The translations under genes and the position numbers were made by a program. This document shows positions 19,507 through 48,997 of a stretch of DNA of 49,788 nt, piece after piece. This DNA comes from Circinaria calcarea (lineage: Eukaryota). Where the stretch lies: positions 1 to 49,788 of the forward strand of contig JAVECS010000009.1 of assembly GCA_051942165.1 (NCBI GenBank), read 5' to 3'. A model generated the notes under the pieces. It had not been told where the DNA came from, did no database searches, and saw nothing but the letters and a program-made list of their open reading frames with translations. Each line of letters begins with the position of its first letter. Position 1 is the first letter of the stretch.

Positions 19507-20118
19507 CAAACTAGCAGGGCAGGCTACCCGGCTACGACTTAACGTAGTGGAAGGAGAGTTGACAGACTGTAAGTCACGAATTGGGAATTATCGAATTCCC
19601 AGGGAGGGGGAATACATGGAAGTGGGAGGTAGAGTGATAGCCCATAGAATGTAGGAAAAGAAGACACCGAAAGTTCATGGAGATATATATAGGGAGAGAA
19701 GTACAGGATTGAGCGGAAGCACAGTTGCGTTTGTCAGATAACACTAGCAAAAGGGCGACGTGGACGGGGGCCTGGTCGGGTAGGACAGAAATTCCAGTTT
19801 TGAGAGTCGGGGTCCGTTTCTAAATTAGTATAATGTAACCGCGTCTTTCTTGTTGAGATTACCAGTCACTACCTACTAATTCTAAGACGTGTACATAACC
19901 TTTCTCCCTTTTCAACCCAAGCGACAATCTAAAGTCAACTTAAAGTAAATTCCCCGCTATTCTACCGGCTCTAGCTAGTTTACTTAAGACAGCGGGTGAA
20001 ATAGCTATTCTACACGATCTTATCAAGCTCCACAATCTCAGGATACAGACTTCAACTATTGCACATTTAAGGTAATACTCTAGAGGCAAGATATACACGC
20101 TAGAACAGTGCTTCAAGC

Positions 20119-21062: not shown

Positions 21063-22078
21063 TCACGTCTGCATTTGCAACGTTGCTCCACCATCTACTA
21101 GCCATCCCACACCTGTCACGTAGCTTGCTCTCGGGCTACTCAGAAACATAATGATATCCGATATTTCCTCGGTCTTGGCAATCCTCCCGAGAGGCACGAC
21201 TCGCTCCATTACCCGACCAAGTTCTGGATTGCCTGCCACTGCTGCCTCGATCATCGGTGTCTCGACCCATGAGGGGCATATGGCATTAACTCTAATGCCA
21301 TGTACGGCATTGTCTAGAGCTAAATACGGCTGGCATTAGCTTGCCGCTTCTAGGATGGGACCGCGTCCACGGATTATACTAACCGGCGTTACGTGTCAAG
21401 CCCAGCACCGCGTGTTTTGAGGTAGTGTATTGTACGATATGGTGAGTAGCAACGTACGAGTTGCAGGAGCCGAGATTGATGATCACTCCCCGACCAACAT
21501 CTCGGGGTCCATTACGTCCGGCTATGGTGATTGGAGACTGCTGCTTCATCACCTTACTCACGGCTTGAACGCAATGCAACACCCCACGCACGTTCACTCT
21601 CCAAAAGAGATCAAACTCTTCAATCGAGGCTTCGGCGACCTCTCGGGGTTCTCGGACACCTACCTGCAGGCATAGTGCTTATGTCAGCTTTTCTTCCGCC
21701 GAAGGAGCGAGAAATGAAAAGTTGTATCGTACTCCAGCACTGTTGACGCTGTAATCGATACGTCCAAACGTGGCCACAGCCTTGGCGACCATTTCTTCCA
21801 CGCTCTTGAGATCGGCCACATCAACCCGCAAGGCCAGAGCGCTATATTGAGGATTCGTGGCGAAGGCTATGCTGGAACTCGCAGCTGCTTGAGCCGATTC
21901 CAGATTGAGGTCAGCGAACACAACGCCTTGGGCGCCCTCAGCCGCATAGGCCAAGGCACAGTCCCGGCCAATCCCGCTGCCTGATTCATCAGTCTAATAA
22001 AAGAGGGGATGAGAAATCCAGTGCGGAACACTTACCAGCTCCCGTAACAAGCGCAATCCCGTTGATAATCAGAGACAT
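21063..22078 (-). CDS. Short-chain dehydrogenase/reductase SDR1 (FogB/VirB-like), 4 exons
   Basis: Spliced motifs ALVTGAGSGIG, RIDYSVNSAG, catalytic YTTSK, GIRVNAICPSWVETPM and ASYVTGVGWLVDGG. Confidence 0.9.
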
Positions 22079-24050: not shown

Positions 24051-24383
24051 TGTCCTGCCTGACCCTATTGCGTTGCCGTAGGGCTGTCATTATAGTAATG
24101 AGGCAAAGGAGGCAAAACATTGAATATCGGAAATTGAGTGGCATCGCTCGGGGAAGTCAACGGTCTGACACAGCTCGATGTTGAGACTTTTTGGTAAATG
24201 GCATAAAAGTTACGAAGGCCTAAAATAAGTAGTAAATTAATCGATATCCTCTACAAGTACTTCAACCTGCTAAATACTGTTCGTTATAGCACAATCAACA
24301 CGCTTGATTTTACTACACCAACCAATTGTGCTGTACTTCAATGCCTATCAAGATCCCATGTGACCGAGCCTCAGCTACGTTTC

Positions 24384-27300
24384 ATGCCCTCAATGTCTCC
24401 ACACCACGTATCTAAATCCAATAGCGGGGCTTCAACTCCACAGTCGGAGCTAGAAGACGTCCTGCCAAGGTCAAGTGGGAGCCATGCTGGCCAGCCAATT
24501 GCCATCGTTGGCCTGTGTAAGTTCAGCTGTATCAAAAAGGATCAAGACAGTCTGCTAAACACGTTAAATGTCAGCCTGCAAGTTACCTGGGGACAGCACA
24601 TCGCCATCTAAGTTTTGGGATCTAATGGCCAACACTCGCTCTGGACAGTGCGATGTTCCAGGCTCTCGATTCAATGCTGACGCCTTCTACCATCCACACG
24701 GGGTGGAACGACCAGGCAGTATGAATACCACGGGTGGCTATTTTCTCGACGAGGACATTCGAACCTTTGAAAATAGCTTCTTTGGCATTAACAACCTCGA
24801 GGCAACGTACATGGATCCGCAACAGCGCAAACTCCTCGAAGTCGTCTTTGAGTGCCTTGAAGGCGCCGGAGCCCCACTTGATAAAATTTCGGGTTCTAAC
24901 ACAGGCTGCTATGTTGGAAATTTCACTGTGGATTACCAGGTAATGCAAACCCGGGACGCAGAATACCTCAGTCGCTATAGCGCCACTGGTATGGGAACAA
25001 CGATCCTGGGAAACAGGATTAGCCACGCGTTCAATCTAATAGGACCAAGGTAAGCTAGGAGCATCCGACTGTACAGTATTGAAAAGCTCATGGGACTGTA
25101 CCAACAGTCTTGTTCTGGATACAGCGTGTTCCTCTTCACTATATTGTCTGCATGTGGCTTGTACGGCGTTGGAGAATGGCGAGTGCGACGGAGCAATTGT
25201 TGCTGGAGCCAACCTGATACAGTCCCCAGAGCAACATCTTGGTACAATGAAGGCAGGTGTTCTATCAGGAACATCAACATGCCATACGTTCGACTCCTCC
25301 GCTGACGGTTACGGACGAGGAGACGGAATTGGAGCGTTATATCTTAAGAGACTGAATGATGCCATTCGGGATGGTGATCCTATTAGATCGGTAATCCGAG
25401 CATCGGCCATCAATGCGTGAGTAATGTTTTCTGAATCTCCTTACTCTTCGGGGAACAACGATTGCTAAAAGATCAACAGAAATGGGAAAACGCCCGGCAT
25501 TACGCTACCCAGTGCAAACGGACAAGAAGCAGTTATTCGGAAAGCATATGCCAAAGCAGGTATTGGTTTTTCTGAGACGGCTTATGTGGAATGCCACGGG
25601 ACAGGAACAAAAGTTGGAGATGTAATCGAAGGTAAGTTATAGGCACTCACGGCATTTTATATCCCCGAACCTCCGGTCATCAAACTTCATTTGTTGCTTC
25701 TCTGACCCCGCTGACACTGATATACCTACTGAATAGTCGAAGCATTATCACGCGTTTTCAAGCGTCCTGCGCACTCTCCCCTCCTGATCGGCTCTGTAAG
25801 TTCCTATTCGTTAGTGTATAAAACCGCCACAGTAAAACTGACAACTGGTAGGTCAAGACAAATGTCGGCCATTCCGAGGCGGCAAGCGGAATCTCCAGTG
25901 TCATCAAAACGACATTGGCTTTGGAAAAGTCGTTGATCCCGGGTACTGTCGGACTGAATCAGATCAATCCCAAGCTGAAGACCACGGAATGGAACATTAG
26001 TATTCCGACAACATTGACACCTTGGCCAGCCGTTGCTGAATTCAAGGACCACAAACCGATACGGCGTGCCAGTATCAACTCTTTTGGATATGGTGGTGCT
26101 AATGCGCATGTGATTCTTGAGAATGCGGATGCACATGTGCCGTTGGACTATGATGTAGCGAGTAAAGCACAACATACGTTATGCCAGCAAAGCTTCTTGT
26201 TGCTGCCATTCTCCGCTGCTACTCGCGAGTCGCTTGATGCCCGCGTCAAGGATTTCGTTGACTTCGACTTTCACGATGTGAGCGCGCTAGATCTTGCCCA
26301 TACGCTGGGATCCCGACGAACACACTTCGCCAAACGGGGATATATGCTTCTCCAACGCAACGTGCCAATAAATGATGGTCTTTCTACCCAGACACTTCGC
26401 ACTCTACCTAGCGCAGTCAGTAATGGGACTTCCCGCTATGCCTTTGTTTTCACTGGACAGGGATCACAATGGCCGGAGATGTGTAAGGAGCTGTTCTCGG
26501 AGTTCCCGGTGTTCCGTGATGCAGTATCAGATATGGATTGCATTCTACAGTCACTCCCTCACCCTCCTACCTGGACTCTACGGGAAGCTATTCTTGAAAA
26601 TTCAGCTACAAGCTTAATACATCATCCGACGCGTTCACAGCCTGCATGCACAGCAATTCAGGTAGCACTTGTTCAGCTTTTTGCGTCTTGGGGTATCTCG
26701 CCATCGGCCACAATTGGACACTCATCTGGGGAAATTGCTGCTGCTTTTGCCGCGGGGTATTTGTCTACCGCAGCAGCCATTACAATAGCCTACTACCGCG
26801 GCTATGTTGTGGGAAAGCATGTTTCAAACGGTGCAATGATAGCCGCTGGTCTCTCTGAAAATACGGCAACAGCAGAAATTCTTCTAGCAGGTCTCCATAA
26901 CAAGATCCAAGTTGCCTGTATCAACTCTCCCGAAAGTGTAACAATCTCGGGTGATAAATCAGCGATAGATACTTTATTCGGAATCCTTCAGGAAAGGAAT
27001 ATATTCGTTAGGAAGCTAAGAACTGGTGGACAAGCCTATCACTCACATCACATGAGAGCTTTGGGACAAGAATACCAAGATTTGTTGGAACGAGCATTTC
27101 CATATCTCGATGTTTCCAAGAAACTTCCCACTACAGCAATATTTATCTCTTCTGTGACAGCCGAGCTGCAAACTTCAGATCTTGACTCTGCTTATTGGCG
27201 ATCTAACCTGGAAAGTCCAGTTCTGTTCGCAAATGCATTGGAACGGCTGGATAGAGAAGAAGGCCATTTCCACCTGATTGAACTTGGTCCTCACTCTGCA

Positions 27301-30300
27301 CTTGAGCTACCAATCAAACAGATACGCTCTAAGTTGGGAACAGCCGCGGATACGAGGCAATATTCCGCTGCCATCAAACGGAACACAGACTCACTTAAAT
27401 CCGTGCTCAGCCTTGCAGGCTCGCTCTGGCTCCACGGTCATGACGTGTCATTTGAGAGGATCAACGGCATGCATTCTGGTGGAAAAATGGAAATTCCGGG
27501 CCAGAAGTACAAAGTTCTTCACAACTTACCATCGTACAGATGGCATTATGATGACGTGCTCTGGAATGAGTGCCGAACAAGCGTTGAATTCCGACAACGT
27601 AAGTACCCACGGCACGAGCTCTTAGGATCCCAGATGCCCGGAGCGAATGGCTTAGACACCGTTTGGAGAAACGTTCTTAGAGTTGATGACATCTCTTGGT
27701 TAAAGGACCACAAGCTCGAGGAGACGGTAGTTTTTCCTGGGGCAGGTTATGTCTCTATGGCCATGGAAGCAGTTCTGCAGTCCTCTGGGTCTAAACTTGC
27801 CGATCGACCCACTTTTCGCCTCGAGAATGTCAATATATTAACAGCGCTTGCCCTCTCCGTAGAACCAGCTGCGCAAGTTGAACTTTTTACTATTATACGT
27901 CGTTCTCCCATTACATATACATCCAACTCTGACAGCTGGTGGGAGTTTAATATTTCCTCGTTTCAAGGTCGTGTGCCCGTTGCTCACGCTAGTGGATCCA
28001 TCAGCATCAGACCCACTCCTGAAGCTCTGGTATCAAAGTATCAGGCTCCGGCGGATTGCCTGGAACCATCCGCGCCCAAAATGTGGTACGAAAAGCTCGC
28101 AAAACAAGGTCTGAACTTCGGACCTACTTTCCAATCTATTCAGGAATTTCAGGTCTCGCGTATGAAGTCGGTACGTTATTGCACCACAAAAGCGCCGCTC
28201 CTCCAAACTTGTGGCGATGACTGGTCGCCCTATGCTATTCACCCCATAACTCTTGATGCAATGCTCCAGACATCTATCGTTGCGACAACCGCCGGAAACA
28301 GCAAAGATCTCCGTGCCAAGGTACCTACCAGAATTGGCGTTGCGGTTATCGAGACACCAGAGACCTCTATTTGTCCAGCGTCAATTCACTCGCTTGCTGA
28401 AAGCGTTGGATTCGGGACGGTAGAGATAGGTGCCGAGCTTATCAACTCAAATGGTCGCGTGAATGTACAGATTGAGAATGTCAGGCTGGCCCCTTATGAA
28501 GTTACTAACCAGGTAAGAGATGCTGAAATTCGTCACCCGATGTTACGAGTATTGTGGAAGCCCGACATCTATGGGCTCGGACTGATTGGCTCTAATGAGC
28601 TGTCAGATTACCTCGATCAGTTTGCTCAGGAGGCATCTTCAGAAGTTACTGATAAAGGTCTACTCAAACTCGGAGCTGTTCTGAGTCTACTCGCACACAA
28701 GAACCCAGGAATGCGGATTCTTGAGCTAGGAAACGATATTACTGAGATCACCAAAGCAACTCTGGATCTCCTTCATGCAAATACTGCCTTTAGATGGCTT
28801 CGTTCATACACCGTTGGATCAATTTTGGAAAATGGCGAACTCGTTGGAGCAAACATTACCGTAGAGAACGGTGAACGCCAAGCGATTTCGCCAATTATAG
28901 GGCAAACTTTTGACTTGATACTTCTGCCATTTTTTCCTACTGCTGACGTTTATCTCAAAACTCGATTCGAAAGTCTCAGAAATCTTATGCATTCAGAAAG
29001 CCTTGTACTGGCGCTTTCTAGTTCTCCGTTCAGAACATTCCATAGCATCCAGGAGATGGACGTCGTTCAATGCGGTCTTTCCAATAATACGGGCGAGGTT
29101 ATCTTGGCTCGAATGTCTAAAGCAATCGAGAATCACAATGCGTCGATCGGGCATCATTTTGTTGTTATCGATCAAGGATCAAATCCGTTGAGCGAAGCAA
29201 TTATGAAAGAGCTTTCGAAAGTTACTAGCCAGCCTATCACTCGACTCGCTATGAATGAAGTCGAAGAGAAAAACATTATTGCAGGAGCTACGGTCTTTTC
29301 CCTTATCGAATGCCAACAACCTATACTCGTCACAGCCACCGATGATGAGATGCATCGTATTAAGCTGATTACAGACAATGCGTCAACTATCGTTTGGGTT
29401 ACAGGAGGCAATTTTCTCGAGGGTGCTAATCCAAACTTTGCTCTTATATCTGGCATTGCACGAGCACTGGTGTTAGAACAGCCGTCACTCCAATTCTTCA
29501 CATTCGATATCGATGATGTCTACTCTCAAGTGCAGCAAACGGCAGAGCATCTAATATCGGTGCTAAGCCAACGAGACGTACTCGACATGGAGTTCGTTCA
29601 ACGCCGGGGCGTCGTCCATGTAAGCCGTTTCGTACCAGATCATGCACTCAATGATTCTTTCAGACAAAAGCAAGGCACCGAGACAGTTACTATACCTCTT
29701 CAGGAAGCCAAACCTGCTAGACTTTCAATTGAGAGAACTAGGCAATTTGATACCATATTCTTCAAACAAATGGAGCCTCAGAAGCATCTCGATGCGACAG
29801 CTGTTCAAGTTCAAGTAATGTCCGTGGGTCTGAACGCGAAAGACTTTTACGTGCTTGCTGGCAAGGTCGATACAAAGAATGCAACTTGTTCACTGGAGTT
29901 CTGTGGCGTGGTGGAGAAAGTTGGCTCCGCAGTCTCTTCTCTTGCTCCCGGTGATAGGGTTGTAGTCATGGCACCCGGACACTTTGAAACTTTACAGGTT
30001 GTCCCTGAATGGGCTTGCCAAAAGTTAAAAGATCACGAGGACTTCAACACTCTATCAACGCTTCCCGTGGTGTATGCGACGGCTCTTTATGCACTTCAAG
30101 ATCGAGCCAATCTTCGACCTGGTGAAACGGTTCTAATACATTCGGGGGCTGGTGGAGTTGGTATTGCCGCAATCCAAATTGCACAGCTATCCGGCGCCAA
30201 GGTATGGCCTTCTCGCTACGGGTCAATATAGAGATTATAAACTAATATATTTAGGTATTCACTACAGTCTCAACTGAGGCAAAGAAGGATTACCTTGTCA

Positions 30301-32007
30301 AAACCTTTGGTATCAACGCCGCAAATATCTTCAGCTCGCGGGACGATTCGTTTGTGCCCGGTATTTTGAAAGCCACTAGTGGAAAAGGAGTGGATGTCGT
30401 TCTTAACTCGCTAACCGGCGATCTTCTACATGCCGGTTGGCGTTGTTGCGCCTCGTTTGGCCGCTTCGTGGAAATCGGTAAGCTTGACTTGACCAGTGCG
30501 GGCAAGTTAGAAATGGACCAGTTTCTTAAAAATGGCACCTTTACCGCCTTTGATATGAGCAATCTTTACAACTCTAACAACCCAGTTCATCATGCATTGT
30601 GGTCTAAACTACTTACTGAGGTCCTTCGACTTTACAGAGCGAACAAGATCATGAAGATTGAGCCGCTTCAGGTATTTGACGTTTCAGAATTCACCCAGGC
30701 ACTTCGGTACTTTTCCTCAAGAAATCGAATGGGAAAGGTGGCTATTAACTTGGAAAACAATGCTTCAGTACTGCGAGTACAGCCTTTTAAATACAACACT
30801 ACATTCAGCCCTGGCAAGAGCTATATAATGATTGGATGCCTCGGAGGCTTGGGTCGAAGCTTGTCTAAGTGGATGCTAACCAGAGGAGCCCGAAAATTCA
30901 TTTTCTTGGGTCGATCAGGTCTAGATAAGGCACCTGCTCGCCGCCTTATCGAGGACCTAGAACACAACGGTGCTGACTGTAAAGTTGTACGTGGGAACGT
31001 CTGCAACCAAGAGCATGTCAAGGCGGTTATCGACCAAGTCGATGGTCTTGTGGGTGGCGTGATTCAGGCTGCAATGGGGCTTAACGTTGGTCTTAAATAT
31101 GACCTATCCCTTTTCTGATTGGCTGACATAACTCTAGGAATCTTTATTCACCACGATGTCCAATGAACATTGGCACACAGGTATCGACCCTAAGGTTATC
31201 GGGACCTGGAATCTCCATAATAGTATCAGAGGCAAAGACTCCGAGCTCGAGTTCTTCCTAATGACTAGTTCTATTTCTGGGACTGTAGGTACTGCGACAG
31301 AATCTAATTATTGCTCTGCAAATTATTTTCTAGATGTGTTCGCGCGATATAGACGCACTCTCGGTCTTCCTGCAACATCCATTGGCCTCGGGATGATCTC
31401 TGAAGTTGGCTATTTACATGAGAATCCCGAGATTGAAGCGCTGTTATTGCGGAAAGGGATTCAAGCTATCAATGAAGACGAACTTCTCCAAATTGTTGAT
31501 ATCGCTCTCTCAAGCCATACAACTATTCCGCACGCCTATGACGGGCATGCCCACGCCCACATTCTGACTGGTTTGGAGCCATTTGGACTGAAGGAGTTGC
31601 GCAAAAAGGGGTTTGAGGGCACGAATCCTACGCTAAATGACCCTCGCGCCGCAGTTCTCGCCGCCGCTCTAGACGGTCAGGCAGATGTTGCATATAAAAA
31701 CCAAGATGGAAATCTGCCAGCCGAGGTTGCTGATGCCTTGGAGAAAGGTATGCTACTTGCCGACGCCGTTTCAGCTCACGTCTCCAAACGCTTCGGAAAC
31801 CTGGTGCTCCTACCTCTTGCGCAAGTTGACGTGTCAAAGCCGTTGGCCGATTATGGGATGGACAGTATGATCGCGGCGGAGTTTAGGACATGGTTTTTCA
31901 AGTCCTTCCGTGTTGACATTCCGTTTTTGACTTTACTGAGCAAGACCAGTACGGTACGTAGCCTCAGCGAGGCTGCTTTGGAACTTATATCAATAGACTG
32001 TGCATAG
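24384..32007 (+). CDS. Iterative highly reducing type I polyketide synthase, KS-AT-DH-(psi MT)-ER-KR-ACP, 8 exons
   Basis: [69 protein letters not shown] remnant [54 protein letters not shown]. Introns 24517-24574, 25050-25107, 25417-25479, 25632-25736, 25796-25851, 30202-30254 and 31086-31137. Confidence 0.96.
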
Positions 32008-32821: not shown

Positions 32822-34263
32822 CTAGTCCGCCAGCTTCGACAGCCTCTGTGGGTGATACGCCTCGGGACCCATGTATGTCGTGATGGAGAGCTCTCCCTTT
32901 TGGAAAGCGCAGGAGATATATGTCTGCACGCCGACGGCGCTATCGAGCGTCCGGTGTGTAGCCAAACTCTCTAGGATACGCATATAGTTGTCGTTGAAGC
33001 GGCCTCTACCGCGCGATTCCATCCACCGAGTTAGTCCGCGTGCAATCTGAAGGTCATCTTTCCCGTAACGGCGGATGGGTATGTAGAATTTAATGTCGGG
33101 CACGGAAGATCCGGGTGCCACATCGAAATAGTACAGATAACCGGACAACAGGATTGGGAGGTCTTTGAAGTTGGCCAAGGCGGCTGGCGCGTACGCGGTG
33201 GAGGCCGGAATCTCCCGCGATGAGGGAAAGTCCTTATCCAAACCAACAGTTAGCTTGATCAGCTCGTTAAGTTCCTCGAGTGCATGATCCATTCCGTGGA
33301 TCTGGCCGCCCATGGTCATGATAGTTCGTACGCTGTCAAAGCTTGTATGTGGGCTCTGGACGTAGAGCTTCATGCGTGACTTGCTAGGCTTGACGCAATC
33401 GATGGCGAGCATGAACGGTTGAAGCAAGGAGCCCTCGACATCCGTCTTGATGAAACTAAATACTTTGTCTAAAGAAGCATTGGCTGGTGCAATGCCTCGT
33501 ACTGCATTTTCCCAAATGTCGAGTCCAACCGGACCTTTCTGACCGAGTTTCTTGGGTGCAAAATACGTCTTGACCGTAAGGCCTTTTTCCAGAAACTCGA
33601 AAGCCAAGGACATGGTAGTAGTTAGGTGTGCGTCAGGTTCGGTGGCGTATTTCTGCTTGTCGGAATCGTAAAAGGCAGCTGCGAAGTGATGAAACCATGT
33701 CAAGTCCAGACTCGGCATTGCCAGACTGAGTTTGTAGAGGAGATCCTTTGTTGAGTCTTGGTTGAGAGGGTCGATGCTCGTGCCCGTGAGTGATCCAATA
33801 GGCTCCATTGTATAGCGGACATCTGGTACTCCATACACAGTATTCCATTTCCAGCTATACTCGATTGGGGTGCCATCGACGGTCAGAAGGCTCTTCCATT
33901 TTGGGGTCTGGCTGGGCGAAGCGCAAGGGCCAAGCCGCGGTACCACGGTGTGATAGTGGAAGAGCATGCCCTCGTATTGATCATGAACGCTGTATCCGGC
34001 TTCGAAAAGCATTACTGCCAGATGTGGACCAGTCAACTGCCACCAATAGTCGCAGTCTGCGTTGCGGGAAGGAAGCCATCGCGAGACCATACTCCATATA
34101 GAAGTAAGGCTGGTGACAGGAACATCATTCCGAGCACAGATTTCGCTACTTGTTGGCTGATAATCACGAGCAACATAAGCGTAGAAAGGGGACTTGTTTT
34201 TGGTCACAGTACCTTTATCGAGCCCGCCTCATTTGGGCTCAAGCCTCGCACTACTTCAGTCAT
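32822..34263 (-). CDS. DMATS-superfamily aromatic prenyltransferase (FogH/AnuH-like)
   Basis: YWWQLTGPHLAVML, WKSLLTVDGTPIEYSWKW, VRYTMEPIG, DPLNQ, MLAIDCVKPSKSRMKLY, YYFDVAPG...PDIKFYIPIRRYG and QTYIS. Exon 1 is 34263-34213, intron 34212-34157. Confidence 0.93.
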
Positions 34264-35654: not shown

Positions 35655-38284
35655 CTATGTGCTATCTCCTATCATCTTGCCCGACACGATAGCTGCCTTA
35701 TGCCTCCTCGTCGCTAATATCTCTTCCCTCCAGAGCCATGCTAGAGCAGTGGTAGCACCGGATCCCAACAGCAGTGTCCCAGCACCCAATAGAACCAAAA
35801 GCGTAATCCATCTCTGCTGCATCATGCCCGCAATCTTGAGATCTGCAAACATATAAAGAACCCACGTGATCGAGCTCAGGACAAAGAACACCTGGTCCCA
35901 TTGTAGCAATGCTCGTGCGCCGCCGATAAACGTATCCAAGCCCTGTTCATATGGGACAAAGATGGTCTCTAAGGAGAAAGGAGCCGTAAATACCAAGTGA
36001 ATCCACACGGTGGCGGATAGCGCAGCGAGCGAGCCCACTGTGATGCGGATTGGCCATATATCTCGCGTCACACCATGGATACGGTTATTCTGCATCGTGT
36101 TCGGCATGACTGTGCATCCAAGTATCCATTGGCCAAGACTCACCCAGACAGGGTACAGATGCCAGACCCACATGCCGTAGTGGCGGATGTTGAAGTCCGG
36201 ATAGAGGAAGGCGACTAAATAAGGGATGTAGTTGCCAAGTACCATGACGGGGAGGACAGAGAGTGTGTATCTAAGGTCCGTGAGACGCATGTCCGACGCG
36301 GAGAAGTTGGAGATGGGTGAGAGGATATAGTGGAGAAAACACCAGAATGGCGTGACGATGCCGATACCGTGCATGGATGCTATGCCAAAGAGAAAAGGGC
36401 TGACGATTCGAGTTAGAGATATATAAGATCAGTATCGGCTGAGGGTCTGTACGTGGGTACCGAGGATACTTACTATCGTAGGGGGGTGAATACATTAGCC
36501 CGCCGAGCTGATTCGATAAGGATAATTGTGTACACAAGGCTCCAGTCGGGGAAGAAAGAAAAGTTCTGGTAAGAGCTTGCAAGGTCGAAACCCATAGTCG
36601 AAGGAGCAAGAACAACGGTAGGGCCGCGGACAAAATCGTCAAAAAACTTCATCGGGTAAAACTTCTCCGGAATGAGGATAGATGATGATACACCCCATGA
36701 AATCTTTCCAGCCTGCAATACCACAGCTCCTGTCTCATATGGAATGACGGACGTCATGGTGCGGAAGGCCCATATGGATAAGAGTAGAATAGGAAGCGCT
36801 CTCAAGGCTCGATACAATTTAACGTCTTTCTTGCTAAGCCCTTGCTCTGAGTTGAATGGCATGGTACTGTTCAGAGACCGTACTGGCGGAGGAAGGTAGT
36901 TTAGTAACGGAGCTCCGATCCACCCATCGCAACTCATATCAACTATACGATCTCCGGCATATGGGAGGACGTAGTGTACCAAGATGTATTCTTTCATGCC
37001 TTTAAGAGCTTGGAGTCGGGTGAGGTCGTTAGCTGCTTTAATCGCTTCAGAGCATCGGGGTTTTCTATTCCGCTGATATTCATTCAAAGCTCGGCGAACA
37101 TCTTCAAAGCTTGGAGGGCTTCCATCATTATGGATGCTCAAAGCTTGGATTGTGTTGGCCAAGGCAGCTGCGCTCTCAATCGCTGCCATCCCACCAACAC
37201 CCATATTTGGTGTCACCTTGTGAACACTGTCACCCAAACAAGCAAACCTTCCCCAGACCCAGTGGTCGTAGTCAGCTTCTTCAGTAGCGACCAAAGTATA
37301 GGACTCTCTATGTTTCCATATGTCACCGAACTTCACGAGACCTTGTGGTAGAATGGCCAGATTGAGGTTTTGCTGTACAAGCTCTTCTGTGTCTGCCTCT
37401 GTAAATCGGGGTATTTCACCGCTCTTATAACGTCGAGCCATTTTAGAAAATAAGAACCAGAACACCCTACCACCTTTACCGGTTATAACCATCGTAGAGA
37501 CGTCTTTCTTGTAGGTGATATCGTAATTGCCACTTGGAAGCTCAGCGACTGGAGATGATATCCCATAGAGACACTTGTATTCTGCAGTCATAGCTAATAA
37601 ATATAATCAGTATCCAGCAAGAGTAGGTCGAGAGCCACTTACAATTCTTTTCTTCTTCAGATATCTTCCCAGGCTCTTCAGCGTCTGCAGCGCGCCACAT
37701 TTCCTGCCGCACCTTACTAAAGACCCCGTCGGCCCCGGCGATAGTATCCCCATGATATGAAGATCCGTCGGCGCAATAAGCTGTTACACCGTTCGCGGAG
37801 TGGTCAACCTTTACCAGACGCTTATTAAGAAGTATTTTGCTCTGATCTAATACATGTTCTGCAAGAATGCGGAGAACTATCTGGCGGTCAAGAAAGCAAA
37901 GTGGATAATGTGTGCTAACGTGCGATACACCGTCAATCAAAGAACAACACCGAGCAGCGTTTCTATTTCTTACCGAGTATGGACGAGCTGAAATCCGTCG
38001 TATCTAGGGAAAATATCATCTCCATTCTCAGCATGGTTCCCAGCGGACACCAGAGGTTCTGTTAGCTTCTCCAGCTCCCCATAACAAGACAACTGTTCAA
38101 GGATACGACATCCATTTGGAGCCAAGCCGATAGAAGCACCAAGTTGTGGCGCAATAACAGACCTCGATTCGAGGAGAACATAATCGATGTCTGCGTGCTG
38201 TAATGCGTTCGCGAGAGTCAGGCCTGCGACTCCTCCGCCTACAATAATGACTCGCAAACCGGTTGACTTTGGAATATCTGCCAT
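35655..38284 (-). CDS. FAD-dependent monooxygenase (PaxM-like epoxidase family) fused to a C-terminal polytopic membrane domain, 815 aa, 4 exons
   Basis: GxGxx[11 protein letters not shown] motif [12 protein letters not shown] and GD motif [17 protein letters not shown]. Exons 38284-37974, 37914-37643, 37593-36474 and 36399-35655 total 2448 nt in frame. The C-terminal ~340 aa is multi-TM with [14 protein letters not shown] and LQWDQ. Confidence 0.88.
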
Positions 38285-39427: not shown

Positions 39428-41349
39428 ATGTTGTCACTTCAAGGGCTTTATATTTGCGTAAAGCATCCTCTATTATTATTGATAAGTTTTTTTATCGTGA
39501 TTATCGCTACCATTGCTCTTCTCGTAAACGCTATTTATAATCGTTATTTTCATCCACTTCGTCATATCCCGGGTCCCTTCTGGGCTAGCGTGACAGATTT
39601 TTGGAAGTTATATATTTGTATTACGAAAGAGTCCCATACCAGAGGCATAGAGCTCCATAGAATATATGGTTTATATATTTAGAAAGTTCTCTTTTGTCGG
39701 TATAATAACTAATTCTGCAATCAGGACCCACCGTTCGCGTAGCGCCAAATCTGCTAGCATTCAACGACCCGAAACTTCTTCCGAAAGTCTATCATAGATA
39801 TGTGGACAAAACGGATTTCTATAGCACAGGTATACTGGGTGATATTGCCCCGCCCTTTCAAACCCTAGACCACAGGGAGCATGCAGCGAAGAGGAAGAGA
39901 ATCGCTCCCTCGGTAACTTTGCAGTGGACCGCTTACATTCACGCAAGTCTAACCTACACAGTTTTCCATGACCAATTTGAGAAAACTGGAAAGCGAAATC
40001 GATGAGTCCATTACTGAATTCATCGACATTCTCAGGGATCGATATGCAAAGACAGGGGTAAGACTCGATTTCGCAGAATGGATAAAGTAACTTAAACCCT
40101 TTCATTAAAATTATAATCGAGAAGTTTAATCCAGCTTTATCTAATCCGAGACTTTCCACGCCAGGTGGTTTGTCTATGATACGGTCTCGCACATGGCGTT
40201 CGGTAAAGCCATCGGTTTTGTACGACAGGGCAAAGATGTGGGCGGCTTGATACAAGCTTTTCATAGCATGGCACCTCTAGCGGGACTTGTCGCCGCACTG
40301 CCCTGGCTGATGAATCCTATACTTAAGAGTCCATTAGTAGGTAAGTTCTTCATGCCTAAGGCTGGTGATGGAACAGGGACTGGGAAAATCATGCTGGTGA
40401 GCATATGCTAAAGAGTATAATTTGTAAACATGGTATATACTAAAACCTTTTAGTACCGTGACAACATGTTGAAACATCGTTTGGAGAATCGCCATTCCGA
40501 GCACCATGGTGACTTCCTGGGCAGGTGAGTCCCGATTGCATTAAATTTAAACGGCTGGATTCTTATTCGAACTCTAAATAGCATTCTGGCTGCTACTAAT
40601 GCCGATGGTACTCTTATGAGTATCGAAGAAGTGAAAACAGAGGCTTTCGTTCTCATGGTCGCCGCAGCAGACACAAGTTCAGCGTTCCTAGGCCCGTTCG
40701 TAAACCATGTTATCCAGGATCCAACGGTGTATGAAAAACTAGTACAGGAAATTCAATCCTTCGAATTAGCTGGAAAACTGTCATCCCCAGTCCCCACAGT
40801 CGACGAGACGAATAACATGCCGTATTTTACTGCTTGCGTCAAAGAGACCCTACGCTTCTCTCCCTCAACTCCATTCATCTTGCCTCGGTACGTATCACGG
40901 GGAGGTATTGACCTCAACGGGACCTGGGTACCAGAGGGAGCCGAAATTGGCGCGAATCCATATATCGTTCATCGGGATTCGGTTACGTTCGGGGAGGACG
41001 CGCACCTATTTTGTCCGGAACGATGGTTGGAATCCGAAGAAAGAGCAAAGGAGATGGACAAGTACATTCTTAGCTGGGGATACGGCACACGGGTTTGCCT
41101 GGGTAAAAACATTGCGCAGATGATGATTCAAAAGCTGTGTTTGCAGGTAAGATCTGACGGATCATTCCCCAGCGTAAGCAGTACTAACCAGATGGCACTG
41201 TGCAGTTGTTTCGGAGCTTCCGCTTTCAGTCGGCCAGTCCCGGGAAACCCTGGCGATGCGCGAATATGGCCATCATGCTGTATTGGGACCAGTGGATCAC
41301 CATTCAAGACCGTCCTCAGGCATTGGGCCTCGAGAAGGGAGAAAAGTAG
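39428..41349 (+). CDS. Cytochrome P450 monooxygenase, 7 exons
   Basis: N-terminal TM plus HPLRHIPGPFWAS, YG|PTVRVAPN, I-helix AAADT, KETLR, PERW and heme ligand WGYGTRVCLG. The last exon (41206-41349) ends in TAG. Confidence 0.94.
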
Positions 41350-42147
41350 GATGTACCCCGTAAGCTTGGAATGGTGGGTAATCCTTCAGTCTCGAAGGAA
41401 GCGAGGAATCGAGGATGATGTGGAACAATAGTAAATTCGTAGCGAGCCAACAAAGCCATTTCCCATAGTAAACTGGAAACATCGCAACCTCTCCAATGAT
41501 ATCCTGTCTGTCTTGACGTCGGGAAATAAGTAAAACGTTGAAGACGCTGCGCTATGAGAGCATACACAGTATGCCATATCGGGTGCTGGATCGTGCTCAA
41601 CCCTGTCACACCACGTGGATCACTCCAGCGTCATCGGGCCAGTCAGCTTTCAGTGTCAGGCATCAGCTCACAGCCTCGTTCCCATATTAGCAACCGAAAG
41701 CTGTTTACAGTAACACCGCCGAGGATGCAAGATTTGAACCTAGGGACACGCTCAGTTCCCTGGATCGATGGAACGATGCTACCCTCCAGAAGACATACGC
41801 CGTAAGGATTAAAGAGGCTTCAGTGGCTTTACACGCTTATGGGTACTCCATATCGATATCCAGTCCACATCCTCTAAGGTCTAGATCTCCCTCGTTCTCT
41901 CCACTGCCTCATGACACATCTTCCTCGCTGTCCGATCTCCAGCTCATACCAGGCATCCGGTCGATTGTCTCCCGTCATCTGGCTGTGCCGCCGGGGGCCA
42001 TGATTCTGCCTACAGGCAACAAGAGCCCAGCCCAGCCCAGCCATGGCCATCCCTTCTCGTAGTATAAAGAATGTTGTGAATTCCCTCTGTTAAGCTCGTT
42101 ATCTTTTGGCAGCCACTCTAAACACTCCATTCGTTGTTGCCCCAATC

Positions 42148-43911
42148 ATGCATTCCTTCTTTACCACAGCATGCGTTGCCGTGGTGGCAATGCTATCAAG
42201 CGTTCAAGCAGCTCCTTACCCACTCAATCTCGGCCGAGACGATTTTACTTCTCTCTCCCTACGTTCTGCTGACATCGCCACTGAACTAGGCCCGCAGCTC
42301 TCCCGGAATGCCTCCATCTTCACGCAATCAGATCCCCGGTTTGCAAACGCCACGGATCGTTTTCAAGCTTACAGTCCCCCTCAGTTCAGCGTGGTGGTAG
42401 AACCTGGCATTGAGGCAGATGTGGCAACTGTCGTGAGTAGCTCTCACAGTTGATGTTTAGTATTTCCCAGATTGACCGGTTCTCTCTAGGTCAAATACGC
42501 AAACTCTCGCAAGATTCCATTTCTTGCGGTCAACAGAGCGCATGGTTCTACGGAGACCTTGGGTCGATTTACCCAAGGTATTGAGATTCACATGACTACG
42601 CTCAACAAAATCATCCCCAGTGCCGACAAAACTTCTGCGTTTATGCAAGGTGGAGTCTACGGTGATGAAGTGATCCAAACTCTATGGGATATGGGCTACG
42701 TTGCGAGTAAGTTACGACGAATCTTACAGTTTGGGAGTTGTTGCTCACTAGAGTACTCTAGCCACCGGTAGCTGCGGGTGCGTTGGTATGCTCGGACCCG
42801 CTCTCGGCGGCGGCCTTGGTCGTTACGAAGGGTTTTACGGCTTGATCGCTGATAACCTGATCTCTTTGAATGTCGTCCTTGCCAATGGCAGCGCCATCAC
42901 AGTCTCTGACAGGTCATACCCGGATCTATGGTGGGCTATGCGTGGTGCTGGCCATAACTTTGGTATTGTGACCAGCTTTGACATCAAAATTTACAAACGG
43001 ACTGTCGACTCATGGTTCTACGCCGTATACATCTACACCCAGGACAAACTAGAAGCTCTTACCGAAGCAGTCAACAAGCAGATGAACAACGGCACTCAGC
43101 CGAAAGAGCTGATGAATTATGGCGTGTATACCCTTGTTCCCCAAATAGACCCAAAGGAGGTTAGTTGTTTTAATTCTGATATTGATATGTTCCGCCTAAC
43201 ACTCCAACGTGAATAGCCCGTGCTTATCTGGACCTTTTACTACGTCGGTACGGCTCAGCAAGCAGCACCATACATGGCCGCTTTCGTAGAGCTGGGCCCA
43301 GTCTCCATCAGCAATGGGTCAATACCTTACCCAGAGATCCCTGATGCAACCGGAACTGGCTCTAACACTCCTCTATGTGATCACGGGCTCGTTCATATCT
43401 CTTATCCCATCGGTCTCCTCACGTATAACGTCAGCACCAACCGCGCGGTTTATAACCGCCTCCGAACTCTGATATCCGAGGTCCCCGCATATAACATGTC
43501 GGCCATCATCTTCGAAGGCTACTCGCTCGAGGGGGTGAAAGCCGTCGATTCCGACTCAACTGCCTATCCGCATCGCAGTGACAACATCCTCGTGTAAGTA
43601 CATCTCGCCTCAAAGCGGTATGCCCAATCATGGTATGGCTAACAGTCGGAAGTGATGTTGCTGTACTTTATTCCCCAGACAGCTCACTGGATGCTGCAGC
43701 CATCTCATGGGCCAAAGAAACAAAGGAGGTATTCCATGCCGGTGACGAGCCTGGCCGCAAGGAGACGGCGTATGTCAACTATGCGTTTGGCGATGAGCCA
43801 ATTGAGCAGATTTATGGCTACGAGCCGTGGCGGTTGCAGAGACTGAGCGCGCTCAAAAAGAAATACGACAGTAAGAACCGGTTTAGATATTATAACCCGA
43901 TTCCCTTTTAA
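42148..43911 (+). CDS. Secreted BBE-like (VAO/PCMH) FAD-linked oxidoreductase (FogF/AnuG-like), 5 exons
   Basis: Signal peptide MHSFFTTACVAVVAMLSSVQA, flavin-attachment region VNRAHG, GSCGCVGMLGPALGGGLG, PDLWWAMRGAGHNFGIVTS and BBE tail AYVNYA...RLSALKKKYDSKNRF. TATAAA at about 42063. Confidence 0.92.
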
Positions 43912-44611: not shown

Positions 44612-45725
44612 TTAAAGCTCGGTTGTCAAACCCGGTTGGATAGCCTCTAGCTTCTCCACAAGCTCCCCCCAAACCTTCTTCTGCGCACTCTGGCCCTCGG
44701 GGCTGCTAACGTTCTTCCCAAGCGCTTTGCTGTATTAGAGGTTAGCTCTCGCCCCCTCTCGGCTTGTCCTATCGGATTGTGCGCTTACTTTACAATCAGG
44801 GCGTTGCTAAGGAAAATCCCATGCGACTCTGGTCCGGCAACTGTGGCATGGACAAGCGTCCGGCTACCTTCTTCAGCGGTCCACGCCATCAGCGCGCGCA
44901 TGATCTTCATGACCACGAATGTGCTACCGGTTGCGCTGCGCGTCAGTGCCGTGTGGCAGAGCCCCGGATTCATCGTGTTGACGATGACAAAGGGTTTCCG
45001 ACTCGCCGTTCGGTCGGCGATTTCTCGCACGGCGAAGAGCTGGAGGAGTTTGGAGACCAGGTAGCTGTGTGCAAGATCAAAGTAAGCTTGCGATAACAGG
45101 CAAGGGAGAACCGATGCTAGAGGAGGATGAGAACGTACCGGTCTTTCATCTTTGCCGTCTTCTCGTCGTTCAGGGTGTCAAACGAATTGGGCGAGTTCCG
45201 CTCGGTGAATGGTGTGTAAGCGTGTACGCCCGAACCGACAACGGTGAGGACAGGCTCGATGTTCCATTTAACTGAAGACGCGCGGAGTGTCGGGAGGAGA
45301 AGCAACATGAGTAAGGTAGTGCTGACCACGTTTACCGTAATGGTACTTTCGTTGTCTTCGAAAACCTCATACTTCTCCGTGGCAATCCCAGCGTTCAAGA
45401 CGGCAGCGTCAACGCGGGGCAAGGTCGCAACCTTTGCGGCGAACGCCTTGATCGAGTCATAACTAGCGTAATCGATGTTCCAGACCTCAACGACTCCAGT
45501 CCGCTTCGTATCTCTCTCGATCTCTCTCTTGGCCTCCTCACCCTTGGAAACGGAGCGGACGGCAACGATGACTTTCTCGGCTCCCATACGAACAAAGTGC
45601 TTAGACGCTTCCAATCCTAGACCGACATTCGCACCAGTGACGATGATGGCTTGACGTGAGAAATCATTTTGAGGGTAAGGAGGCTTCTGGAACAGCTGGG
45701 TGTAAATGTCATTGAATACGGACAT
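44612..45725 (-). CDS. Short-chain dehydrogenase/reductase SDR3 (retinol-dehydrogenase/WWOX-like), 3 exons
   Basis: IIVTGANVGLG, VDAAVLNAG, R|YLVSK, NTMNPGLCHTAL, TAEEGSRTLVHA and QKKVWGELVEKLEAIQPG. Stop TAA at 44612-44614. Confidence 0.9.
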
Positions 45726-45784
45726 AATGACTGACAGCCTTGAATGAGGTAAGTATGGCTTCGACTAGGGTCTTGACAGTTTGT

Positions 45785-45795: not shown

Positions 45796-47707
45796 GGCGA
45801 GTGAGCGATACTATGTAGGCATGAGTGTAGGAGGTGAGGCCACAGGAAGGTTCACACGGCGTACTTGGTGATTGTACCTAAGAAGAGGGAGGGAAAAGTG
45901 GATGGCTGCAAACGCTTAGAGCTCGTTAGATGCGAGGGATTTCTAATTAGGCAAGGAAGCCTATGCCTCTGAGGCTGAGCCGGGGTGCGACCAAGGCTGT
46001 CAGACAATATCGGAGTTTATGGAATTAACAAACACTAACAGCGGGAAATTGACGGAGCTACCGGTGAGCGTCTTGGGTGCAGCCTGTGTATGGGATGATT
46101 TGGTATTAAATTGTTACACGACAGTTTGTGGTTGATACAAAGGCGACAGGAAGCGGCGAGTCAGGGCTAATCATTCTTCGGCCCACGAAGATAGAATTAG
46201 TGCTGATCGCTAGTGTCGGCCGCCTGAGGGACCCTGGGCTTATATACTATGGCGCCGAAGGATCTAAGGCCGAGGCGATCTAGAGTGCAGCATTTCGGTG
46301 CAGCAGGGTCCAAAGCTACCGTTCCGAGAGGAAGGCCAATCCCGGCGGGCCGCGCGGTATCCCTGCATAAGCCCCTGTGAGTTTAAGGAGCTATTAGTAC
46401 GATCTGTAAGTGGGAAGTTGAATGGTATGCATATACAAGGTATACCTTGCTCTGCTAAGCCTCCTAACATCACTTCCCCATCTAGCCACGGTAGACGGAG
46501 CTGCGCCTAAGGTTACAGGTGGGGGCCGCTTTTTAGCGCATTCTCAGCGTCTAGAGCGAGTGGAAACGCATGTTTGTAACACCCGAGAGCCTGACCACCT
46601 AGGCGCGCTCAAGCTGTCGCACTTGTCGTATCCCAGTAGATCAAGCCTGATAACAGAGGTATGTTGACGCGTCAGCAGGGTATACGGATGACGGTGTCAG
46701 GGACTAAATATTGGTTCTGTAGTATTATTAAGATGTAAGTGGTGGGATGCAGTAATCTTCACGTGCGAGCAAAGCTATGCGAAGCAGGGTCATACCGTGA
46801 CCTACTGTGGTTTCCCAAGCCCACGAGGACAAACGCCTGTGATGAGTACTATCGGGGAAATATCAGCAAGCGCCTTTTGTAGATAAGCGGAGACATATAC
46901 TAAACCTGTCTCCATCAAAACTAAAACCACGCACGGTTGAATTCGCCTGTGACACGGAGCAAATGCTTATTTCCTAAACGGCGGGTTCAAGGCTGAGAAC
47001 ATCAAAACAAGGTCTAGACTTCGCCTGGTATAGCGAAATTTGGCAGGACCATCTTGCTGATTTAAGGGTCTATACCCACAGTCTTCGTGATATCCCCCTA
47101 ACGTGGCGTGTGTGGCAGGTTCAGGCACACACTTCAGACTATTCTATAGTCCGTGCAAGGGCTTATTGGAAGGCTCTCTAGGAGAGGACTAGGTTTTGTA
47201 CATTGCATATGCTGGTTTTGCGGCGATCCTGCCACAAAAATGCGAAATATCAGGTAGATATCCTCGTTATAGACCGTATATCATGCATTAGTGTGGGACT
47301 CTAGCCCGAGCCGTCTGTACTCTGTGCGTACTAGGACCTTACTCTGAGAGACAGAAACCCTTCCGCTGGTATCCATACCCATTAAAGGCTTACGCTGCAT
47401 TCAACAAGTGGTGCAATAGCCACTGGCCAGTGGTTGATCGGTGGAGATTAAAAGCGGTGAGCTCCTTCGTACAAAGTGATGAGAGCGCCTTTTAAATATA
47501 CTTTCGGCAGGTTCTCGGCAGTGTGCTGTCTTCATACAGGATGGACAATAATTTATACTTATATGTATCAAAGGCTCCGTTGTTCCATTAGAAAGAACCA
47601 GTCAAGTCTGGTGAAGAGAAACTTCTGAGGCCCTTTTCAAGTGTATCGATTGGACATTTGAAAAGGATACTGCATATTTGGTCTATCTGTCGAACATCAC
47701 CCTCCAA

Positions 47708-48997
47708 ATGCCGGACGTCACTCCGATGCGGAACTCGAACAAACCAACACACAAATACCGGGCATCGTGTGACTCCTGCCACGAAGCCAAAGTACGTTGC
47801 TCTCAAACACGACCTGGCTGTGCGCGATGTCTGAAGCATGGTATTTGCTGTGTATATGGCATATCCCAAAGATCCGGCAAGCATAGTGCGGAGACTTACA
47901 ATGCCATGAAGAGAAATTCAACTGTCGTTTCCGGACCCCCAACACCACCAGCGACAACAGGTACAGAGATTCTAAACTCTTTCGACGATACAGAAGATCC
48001 AACAGATTTTTTCTTATCATCTCCAATCTTCCCAGATCACACCTCAGATCCCCCTGATATATTAGGGCAAAAGCGCAGGCAATGGACCTTTGACAGCAAT
48101 ATCGTGCTCGATGAATGTATCGTTCCTCAATGGGCGCGAACCAACTATAACAGTCATTCCATGCTCGGAAAAGATGAGATCCAGAAGAGCAGCTTCCAAC
48201 AACACCCATCACGGCCTTCCTCGCGCCAATGTTCAGAAGATGCCTTGCAGTCCGCAAGGCATGAATCTATTTATTCCCCACCTCCGGTCTCAACGTCCTG
48301 CGGACCGAATGAGAAAGCTTCAAGCCTTTTCCAAGCAGGACTTATGCCTTACGGTCAAAATAATAAAGATGAAAATCTCTCTTCCAGTCAAGCAAGCACC
48401 CCCTGTACCTCTTGCGCAGCCAATAGTCACGCCCATTTTTCACTTCCCTCTGGAACTTGCCGCTGCAACGAGGTTATTATCGCTCAACTATCTTTACTAC
48501 CCGTGCTGCTCCAGAATGAGCGTCGTGCTTTCGATGTCGAGCTCGTCCAATTTCAGCAAGCGATCAGGCTCTGTGCGAGTGTTCTAGCCTGTTCATGTTC
48601 TGGCAAGGACTACACAACCGTTTTGACTATAAGTATGCTCATTGCTCGAATCGTTGCGGTCTTTGAGCGTGGTGGTGGCAACGCGTATAAAGACGATGTG
48701 ATGTCCAGCGATATAGCAGGCAGGGGCAGTATTAATCGGTCACCAAAGTTTTCCCTCGGCACGTATCAGATCGATGGGGAAGACGAGAGGAGACTTAAGC
48801 AAGAAGTTTGGTGGTTGCAGCTCAGGAAAGTGGAGTCCCTTGTTGCAGGATTTAAGGAAATGTTTAGGAGAGCAGAACAACAGCAAGTGCACCAAGACAT
48901 GCTTCAAGCAGCCGCATGGGAGAAACTATATCTCCTACTTGACCAGAAAGCTCAGGCCGTGAAAAGAGACTGGGTAGCAGCCCGTGGTAATATTTAA
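47708..48997 (+). CDS. Zn(II)2Cys6 transcription factor, AflR-like pathway-specific regulator
   Basis: KYRASCDSCHEAKVRCSQTRPGCARCLKHGICCVYGISQRSGK, plus a C-terminal CRC...LACSCS...FSLGTYQIDGEDE segment typical of AflR-like cluster regulators. No introns. Confidence 0.9.
   Translation: MPDVTPMRNSNKPTHKYRASCDSCHEAKVRCSQTRPGCARCLKHGICCVYGISQRSGKHSAETYNAMKRNSTVVSGPPTPPATTGTEILNSFDDTEDPTDFFLSSPIFPDHTSDPPDILGQKRRQWTFDSNIVLDECIVPQWARTNYNSHSMLGKDEIQKSSFQQHPSRPSSRQCSEDALQSARHESIYSPPPVSTSCGPNEKASSLFQAGLMPYGQNNKDENLSSSQASTPCTSCAANSHAHFSLPSGTCRCNEVIIAQLSLLPVLLQNERRAFDVELVQFQQAIRLCASVLACSCSGKDYTTVLTISMLIARIVAVFERGGGNAYKDDVMSSDIAGRGSINRSPKFSLGTYQIDGEDERRLKQEVWWLQLRKVESLVAGFKEMFRRAEQQQVHQDMLQAAAWEKLYLLLDQKAQAVKRDWVAARGNI

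Follow-up and report, generated by a model that had tools for sequence, protein, structure and literature searches.

Here, we describe a gene on the minus strand of a 49,788-nucleotide stretch of DNA from the lichen fungus Circinaria calcarea (GenBank assembly GCA_051942165.1, contig JAVECS010000009.1, positions 1 to 49,788; hereafter, the window). The gene (38284..35655) encodes a single polypeptide of 815 residues, in which a group A flavin monooxygenase (the head) runs on into a membrane domain (the tail). Sequence comparisons indicate that the tail is very probably a member of the PaxA/IdtA-AscI-AurD/CtvD family, and we mildly favor the view that this one chain carries two catalytic domains acting in consecutive steps, an epoxidation followed by ring closure in the membrane domain. 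The fusion is recurrent and apparently undescribed; neither domain family is new, and the two are already known to act as sequential partners.

Gene structure and domain organization

The first-pass annotation of this region had claimed an in-frame fusion at 35655..38284, and reading the gene by hand bears this out: there are four exons and three introns on the minus strand, and one 815-residue product. Exon 1 (38284-37974, with the ATG at 38284-38282) is followed by intron 1 (37973-37915, 59 nt), exon 2 (37914-37643), intron 2 (37642-37594, 49 nt), exon 3 (37593-36474), intron 3 (36473-36400, 74 nt) and exon 4 (36399-35655), which ends with a TAG stop codon at 35657-35655. The spliced product matches an NCBI protein (P0020 in our set) letter for letter over 815 residues, with 100% identity. 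The record is named 'MAG: hypothetical protein Q9187_000161 [Circinaria calcarea]'. All of the peptide strings cited in the earlier annotation (43 letters) are found in the product.

The flavin monooxygenase domain occupies residues 1 to ~441 (36854..38284, minus strand; PF01494), and the membrane domain, which spans intron 3, occupies residues ~442-815 (35658..36853, minus strand), as delimited by the hmmsearch envelope (442-803), hydropathy and the helices of an AlphaFold2 (AF2) model. The junction, a stretch of 14 letters at about residues 442-455, lies within exon 3, in an uninterrupted open reading frame (ORF; window 36476-37591) that also holds the C-terminal half of the monooxygenase. 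The fusion is therefore independent of any predicted splice. The splicing of intron 3 affects only the last 247 residues, and reverse-transcription PCR across exons 3 and 4 would thus probe the integrity of the tail and not the fusion itself.

Could two neighboring genes, one for a monooxygenase and one for a membrane protein, have been wrongly merged? Standalone tail proteins do exist (see below), and retention of intron 3 would lead to an in-frame TAG after exon 3. Nevertheless, ~125 residues at the start of the membrane domain share the uninterrupted ORF with the C-terminal half of the monooxygenase, the signals of intron 3 are canonical (GTAAGT donor, CTAAC branch site, CAG acceptor), fused homologues have a conserved and structured linker, and the same architecture is found in nearly all of the long homologues scanned (see below). 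We consider an artefact of this kind very improbable. The fused homologue StrN (P0046) aligns with the product without gaps over all three exon junctions (41% identity, residues 10-806). Another homologue, a 687-residue ORF call from the European Nucleotide Archive (P0021), contains an insertion of ~20 residues at the exact site of the window intron 3, after ESARRAN. Probably, gene calling in the prokaryotic style translated straight through an in-frame intron at this site; if so, the position of intron 3 is conserved.

An AF2 model made with a 68-sequence alignment of fused and standalone proteins covers all 815 residues, with a mean predicted local distance difference test score (pLDDT) of 94.7 and a predicted template-modeling score (pTM) of 0.92; the linker region, residues 420-455, has pLDDT >90. 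A pTM of 0.92 for a two-domain chain means that the prediction is confident of how the domains lie relative to each other, and the model indicates two domains held in a fixed arrangement as one rigid body.

The membrane domain and its family

Hydropathy and the AF2 helices (over residues 453-798) give the tail about eight transmembrane helices and a short beta hairpin; the helices of a standalone homologue (P0026) are modeled in the same pattern, and there, too, the second helix is followed by the small beta hairpin. No Pfam family was found for the tail when exon pieces, standalone homologues and StrN were scanned. In the ESM Atlas the tail matched ascomycete clusters at 0.93. DUF2834, a weak ESM Atlas match at 0.79, was considered as a family for the tail and rejected, because the Pfam scan gave no confirmation.

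A profile of 14 tails (alignment A1), searched against 1.84 billion representative sequences, found 1566 representatives at E<=0.001, 797 at E<=1e-10 and 255 at E<=1e-30. Every source name seen for this family is fungal, and the family contains standalone forms of ~350-400 residues (examples of 348-398 residues) as well as long forms. One member, P0071, falls in a 90%-identity cluster that bears the names 'Citreoviridin biosynthesis protein' and 'Paxilline synthesis protein A' (NCBI/UniRef). The window tail is 27% identical to P0071 over 310 residues (E 1e-36), and three motifs of the window tail, IESARR, QWDQ and WLWREE, lie in register with VEGVRR, KYDQ and WAWREE. The names obtained from 30 member clusters are by-similarity names only, plus StrN, and among 16 word-search matches to the tail profile, none bears the name of a characterized enzyme. 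Nor was a solved structure found for proteins of the PaxA, AscI, AurD or CtvD type. The first-pass annotation had described the tail as CtvD/AscI/IdtA-like, and this description finds indirect support in the Pfam-less domain of about eight helices, in the relatives named for CtvD and PaxA and in the spacing of acidic residues.

A 361-residue protein from Penicillium verhagenii (P0102) is a standalone tail lacking a flavin domain, annotated as 'Monooxygenase FAD-binding'. This label is likely an annotation error, presumably propagated from fused relatives.

Conservation within the tail was counted over 206 rows, in which hmmsearch had aligned every family member retrieved; at each column, only those rows with a residue there were used. 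Four acidic residues have proposed equivalents in the characterized proteins. D513, in FFDDF (codon 36638..36640, minus strand), is D in 75 of 86 rows and would correspond to AscI D61. E555, in IESARR (36512..36514, minus strand), is near-invariant (E in 103 of 104 rows) and would correspond to AscI E103; the neighboring R558 is invariant (104/104). D736, in LQWDQ (35895..35897, minus strand), is D in 154 of 179 rows, and its proposed equivalents are AscI D296 and PaxA D279. Finally, E793, in WLWREE (35724..35726, minus strand), is E in 179 of 181 rows, with AscI E353 as its proposed equivalent. A further acidic residue, D754, is kept in 170 of 183 rows. The distance from D513 to E555 is 42 residues, identical to that between AscI D61 and E103, and the distance from D736 to E793 is 57 residues, identical to that between AscI D296 and E353.

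Published passages on AscI report that alanine substitution of D61, E103, D296, E353 or D355 lowers activity, and that D61, D296 and E353 occur also in AurD and CtvD (PMC6486709, PMC12312803). Likewise, the PaxA paper states that the D279A substitution abolishes ring closure, so that the epoxide substrate accumulates, and its authors equate D279 with the AscI aspartate (PMC12038925).

The flavin monooxygenase head

PF01494 (FAD_binding_3) matches residues 11-345 at E 3.7e-19, with 69.6 bits against a cut-off of 22. The group A enzymes are recognized by three fingerprint motifs, GxGxxG, DG and GD, and all three are present in the head: GGGVAG at residues 16-21, GADG within a stretch of 13 letters, and GDSVHK at residues 315-320. 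A sequence search of the PDB with the head found 36 distinct sequences at E<=0.001, every one of them a flavoprotein monooxygenase. The best match was HpxO (5.5e-19), followed by NicC, TrlE, VibMO1, salicylate hydroxylase, TropB, SorC, PhqK, AfoD and CtdE. Foldseek with the full-length model placed 3rp8 at the top (E 7.5e-20, TM(target) 0.86, 423 columns) and gave at least 500 matches at E<=0.001, with flavoprotein monooxygenases making up all of those among the matches listed. In the ESM Atlas, the head fell into generic FAD-binding clusters. The head is thus a group A enzyme with the p-hydroxybenzoate hydroxylase (PHBH) fold, a group that includes aromatic hydroxylases as well as olefin and indole epoxidases.

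Recurrence of the fusion

The first-pass annotation implied that the fusion is a rarity, which is an overstatement. All of the listed family matches of at least 541 residues (36 proteins), together with P0020 and P0023, were scanned for PF01494; the scan covered this long class, and the class of 428-513 residues stood outside it. PF01494 lies N-terminal to the tail in 36 of these 38 long members, one of which, StrN, had already been given a gene name. Fused proteins occur in Phialocephala, Thermothielavioides, Achaetomium, Myriangium, Lasiosphaeria, Rhizodiscina, Patellaria, Aureobasidium, Aplosporella, Podospora, Mytilinidion, Clonostachys, Rhexocercosporidium and Stachybotrys, and the named examples span the Sordariomycetes, Dothideomycetes and Leotiomycetes, in addition to this Lecanoromycete. 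The fused architecture is common in the Pezizomycotina and is no peculiarity of this lichen fungus. A linker with the pattern YLPxPxRSLxxTMPFNxxQG is conserved among the fused homologues.

A FastTree phylogeny of 79 near-complete tails (fused in 14 cases, standalone in 50, and of intermediate length and left unlabeled in 15) groups the window tail with those of P0032, StrN and P0028, in a clade of 4 rows with support 97. Fused and standalone tails are interspersed over the tree, with at least 12 changes of state among the 64 labeled rows, and a single origin of the fusion was rejected on this tree. The pattern would be explained by repeated fusion or fission, or by noise in gene calling. No sign emerged that the standalone forms come from fused genes with truncated models: a search for the linker motif PFNP..G upstream of the tail was negative in all 50 standalone proteins.

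The full-length fused homologue already mentioned, 'FAD-dependent monooxygenase StrN [Stachybotrys sp.]' (BDX35614.1, 836 residues), is the only fused member seen with a biosynthetic gene name. No paper with both 'StrN' and 'Stachybotrys' was found in the open literature, and no description of a monooxygenase-membrane cyclase fusion was found there either, subscription papers lying mostly outside the search. If the work on StrN does describe a two-domain enzyme, then the window gene is a further member; otherwise, it is a natural-fusion variant of a two-enzyme system. The name StrN itself implies a 'str' cluster of at least 14 named genes.

Two-enzyme systems with the same logic

The closest parallel is the pair PaxM and PaxA (IdtM and IdtA) of indole diterpene biosynthesis, in which the product of the flavin monooxygenase PaxM, 3',4'-epoxyemindole SB, is cyclized to a tetrahydropyran ring by PaxA, a helical membrane protein with an essential aspartate and no Pfam family, according to the PaxA paper (PMC12038925). 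A monooxygenase and a membrane cyclase are thus known consecutive partners. In contrast to the single chain encoded in the window, PaxM and PaxA are two proteins from two genes (PMC12038925). The substrate differs as well: theirs is an indole diterpene, whereas the Pfam matches in the window include no geranylgeranyl diphosphate (GGPP) synthase and no genes of the IdtB or IdtC type (PMC12038925 for the comparison). The same paper notes that PaxA had gone unnoticed ever since 2001, the year in which the paxilline cluster was identified (PMC12038925).

A second parallel is provided by AscI (ascofuranone), AurD (aurovertin), CtvD (citreoviridin) and AstD, epoxide-opening enzymes that form tetrahydrofuran rings; the published passages describe AscI as having eight transmembrane segments, no Pfam motif and 27-29% identity to CtvD and AurD (PMC6486709, PMC12312803). 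Unlike the window tail, all four are described there as standalone proteins (PMC6486709, PMC12312803). The epoxide of the AscI substrate is supplied by AscE, a P450 fusion, and AurD and CtvD are hydrolases acting on the bisepoxides of polyene pyrones (PMC6486709, PMC12312803).

In the xiamenmycin pathway, a flavin epoxidase, XimD, is reportedly followed by a dedicated cyclase, XimE, which is said to have a SnoaL-like fold unrelated to the membrane family of the window. That system is bacterial and consists of two soluble proteins, in contrast to the membrane fusion described here. As in the reaction that we propose below, the pathway (Streptomyces xiamenensis) converts a prenylated phenol to a benzopyran (PMC4053376).

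The gene cluster around the fusion gene

The fusion gene lies within a biosynthetic gene cluster. Its surroundings were characterized by a Pfam scan of 111 of the 118 six-frame ORFs of at least 90 residues in the window, the 7 ORFs inside the fusion gene being left out. As the first-pass annotation had noted, the prenyltransferase gene sits beside the fusion gene: it encodes an aromatic prenyltransferase of the dimethylallyltryptophan synthase (DMATS) type (32825..34228, minus strand; PF11991 Trp_DMAT, E 7.8e-109) and is the next gene downstream on the same strand. On the far side of the prenyltransferase gene is a multi-exon gene for a polyketide synthase of the highly reducing type (HR-PKS; approximately 24207..32004, plus strand) with the domain order ketosynthase, acyltransferase, dehydratase, enoylreductase (ER), ketoreductase and acyl carrier protein, assigned from Pfam matches on ORFs 24568-32004. 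Farther out in the same direction are a short-chain dehydrogenase (SDR; 21066-21993, minus strand; PF00106, PF13561), a cupin (20122-20460, minus strand; PF07883) and, at the cluster edge, an ATP-binding cassette (ABC) transporter of the pleiotropic drug resistance (PDR) type (14578..19587, minus strand; PF00005, PF01061, PF06422, PF14510).

On the other side of the fusion gene, and transcribed divergently from it, is a cytochrome P450 gene (approximately 39428..41428, plus strand), with a PF00067 match (E 2.1e-39) on ORF 40529-41428 and an N-terminal anchor on ORF 39428-39682. It is followed by genes for an FAD-linked oxidase similar to berberine bridge enzyme (BBE; approximately 42094..43908, plus strand; PF08031 BBE on ORF 43582-43908), a second SDR (45120..45764, minus strand; PF00106, E 2.5e-16) and a Zn2Cys6 transcription factor, the probable cluster regulator (47615..48994, plus strand; PF00172). 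The cluster is flanked by housekeeping genes: on one side, those for NOB1, a tRNA-intron endonuclease and a Crb2/Rad9-like protein; on the other, that for ribosomal L27. The 1.1 kb between the fusion gene and the P450 gene (38285-39427) is AT-rich, with a GC content of ~0.41-0.43, and is likely a promoter shared by the two genes.

Six gene classes typical of the flavoglaucin (fog) cluster, namely HR-PKS, SDRs, cupin, P450, FAD oxidase and aromatic prenyltransferase, are all present within 20.1-45.8 kb of the window. In the fog and px papers, the corresponding set consists of the HR-PKS FogA, the SDRs FogB and FogD, the cupin FogC, the P450 FogE, the prenyltransferase FogH and the oxidoreductase FogF (PMC11669671, PMC11161606). 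On the match of gene sets by description, the region 14578-48994 is thus assigned as a flavoglaucin-type (fog-like) cluster. HR-PKS clusters of this type make salicyl aromatics that are hydroxylated, and C-prenylated beside the phenol. The same gene set is found in the fog cluster of Aspergillus ruber (PMC11669671) and in the px cluster of Xylaria sp. X802, which makes xylasporins and cytosporins (PMC11161606). A prenylated phenol is a plausible substrate, given this gene set. The prenyl-phenol idea of the first-pass annotation gains from these neighbors, which match the set for flavoglaucin-type prenylated salicylaldehydes; the choice of the olefin that is oxidized would still be an inference.

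What is known of the ring-forming step in such pathways? In the px proposal, a prenyl double bond is epoxidized and the chroman core then arises 'likely by spontaneous ring closure' (PMC11161606). The published portions of that work mention no membrane cyclase of the kind proposed here for the window (PMC11161606). Its supplementary table does contain PxG, a 729-residue 'FAD-dependent monooxygenase' lacking an equivalent among the Fog and Vir proteins (PMC11161606), which is ~270 residues longer than an ordinary group A enzyme. As a guess from length alone, PxG may be the same fusion, overlooked.

A proposed two-step mechanism and its alternatives

In the mechanism that we propose, the flavin domain, lying at the cytosolic face and using NAD(P)H, FAD and O2, would epoxidize the dimethylallyl olefin of a prenyl-phenol partitioned into the membrane. 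The substrate would most likely be the dimethylallyl side chain of a prenylated alkyl-salicyl or hydroquinone intermediate. The epoxide would then pass into the helical bundle of the tail, where D736, aided by E793, E555 and D513, would protonate it inside the membrane, and the ortho phenolic oxygen would attack to close an oxygen heterocycle. Attack at the tertiary carbon would give a 3-hydroxy-2,2-dimethylchroman, while attack at the secondary carbon would give a hydroxyisopropyl-dihydrobenzofuran; the pocket of the tail would select between the two. The ring type of the most likely product would be that of the cytosporins and xylasporins. The fusion would shield a labile epoxide both from water and from uncatalyzed closure. 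More tentatively, and with more doubt than confidence, we suggest that the epoxide never leaves the fused protein and that this architecture is the missing ring-former of pathways to prenylated salicylaldehydes and hydroquinones, such as those leading to cytosporin- and xylasporin-type chromans.

Several observations weigh against the two-step reading. The equivalence of the acidic residues to those of AscI, AurD, CtvD and PaxA is drawn from spacing and from names transferred by annotators, as opposed to an alignment or a comparison of folds. The nearest solved relatives of the head are aromatic or decarboxylating hydroxylases (HpxO, NicC, 3HB6H, TropB, salicylate hydroxylase), and the indole epoxidases PhqK and CtdE are placed below the hydroxylases in both the PDB and the Foldseek rankings, so that the sequence of the head does not by itself indicate an epoxidase. 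The published passages indicate that ring closures of the PaxA type proceed slowly without an enzyme, and the tail may therefore merely speed or steer the reaction. The interspersion of fused and standalone tails implies either that coupling of the domains is not obligatory or that the gene models are noisy. Finally, at the two best-covered of three metagenome loci with a monooxygenase and a tail (L005 and L007; see below), the neighbors are ordinary, namely amidase, polysaccharide deacetylase, DUF7492, M16 peptidase, DNA polymerase subunit and patatin genes, and no PKS, prenyltransferase or P450 gene was found around either locus. The tail family is thus not confined to recognizable clusters. 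As a point of reference, AscI resides in a three-gene mini-cluster, according to the accessible text (PMC6486709, PMC12312803).

Some of these observations would fit a different role for the protein, in which the head acts on the salicyl or hydroquinone core, as an aromatic hydroxylase or an oxidative decarboxylase, and the tail serves mainly to anchor the protein, to deliver substrate or to act as a transporter-like partner, taking no part in epoxide chemistry. The best matches of the head in both PDB sequences and folds are aromatic hydroxylases, some members of the tail family sit among housekeeping-type genes, and PxG is given as 28% identical to the sordarial monooxygenase SrdH in the px work (PMC11161606). 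However, a mere anchor would hardly call for ~370 residues, nor for an invariant arginine and four acidic residues that are buried and near-invariant, and these acidic residues fit the published catalytic pattern of AscI. Moreover, a P450 of the fog ring-hydroxylating type is already encoded in the cluster. We regard this role as improbable.

A different alternative keeps the two-step logic and changes the chemistry: the olefin that is epoxidized could belong to an alkenyl chain of the polyketide, or the tail could be a regioselective hydrolase of the AurD/CtvD type, leading to a hydroxylated tetrahydrofuran or a diol. The pairs AurC/AurD, CtvC/CtvD and AstC/AstD use polyenes derived from HR-PKSs, as described in the published passages (PMC6486709, PMC12312803), and the HR-PKS gene of the window lies 3.6 kb from the fusion gene. 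The family annotation includes 'Citreoviridin biosynthesis protein', and water and an internal hydroxyl are equally compatible with the data as the nucleophile. Against this reading, the PKS has an ER domain, the cluster fits the salicylaldehyde set and not the pyrone-polyene set, no O-methyltransferase was found by Pfam among the window ORFs of at least 90 residues, and the prenyltransferase gene immediately adjoins the fusion gene. This alternative appears unlikely, if less so than the anchor just discussed, and we return to the reading with a prenyl-phenol substrate.

If the chain does epoxidize and cyclize in succession, the consequences would reach beyond this cluster. Membrane cyclases of the PaxA/AscI/AurD type have been recognized only recently, and they have neither a Pfam model nor a solved structure. 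Their fusion to the upstream monooxygenase would offer a way to find such cyclases in genomes and to pair them with their partners, and would predict that the separate enzymes interact, as Rosetta-stone evidence for physical complexes of the PaxM-PaxA type. Ring closures deemed spontaneous in fog-type pathways may prove to be enzymatic, and a single gene would serve as a tool for epoxidizing prenylated aromatics and closing their rings under stereocontrol. Structural work could start from the model, which predicts a single body with confidence. A fusion this widespread does not amount to a new principle; it does yield a testable prediction for a lichen cluster and, because the clusters of lichen fungi are hard to study, a clear functional prediction for one gene is of practical use.

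Relatives at other loci

A metagenome scan with alignment A1 found 17 related loci. Ten of these were examined, with 63 of their 100 ORFs of at least 160 residues scanned against Pfam; the ORFs dropped were mostly overlapping antisense frames. A PF01494 ORF lies directly upstream of the tail on the same strand at three fungal loci (L005:8166-10825, L007:8493-11120 and L008:7804-10292), and at L005 the monooxygenase ORF continues into the tail. Among the ORFs scanned, no upstream monooxygenase was found by Pfam at L001, L003 and L012-L016. Four of these (L013:2311-4041, L014:1554-3284, L015:6402-7832 and L016:1020-2450) hold distant relatives of the tail, with 24-26% identity, in ORFs of 477-577 residues. 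The N-terminal parts of these four proteins gave no Pfam match at E<=1e-6, and may represent either a different partner domain or GC-rich read-through.

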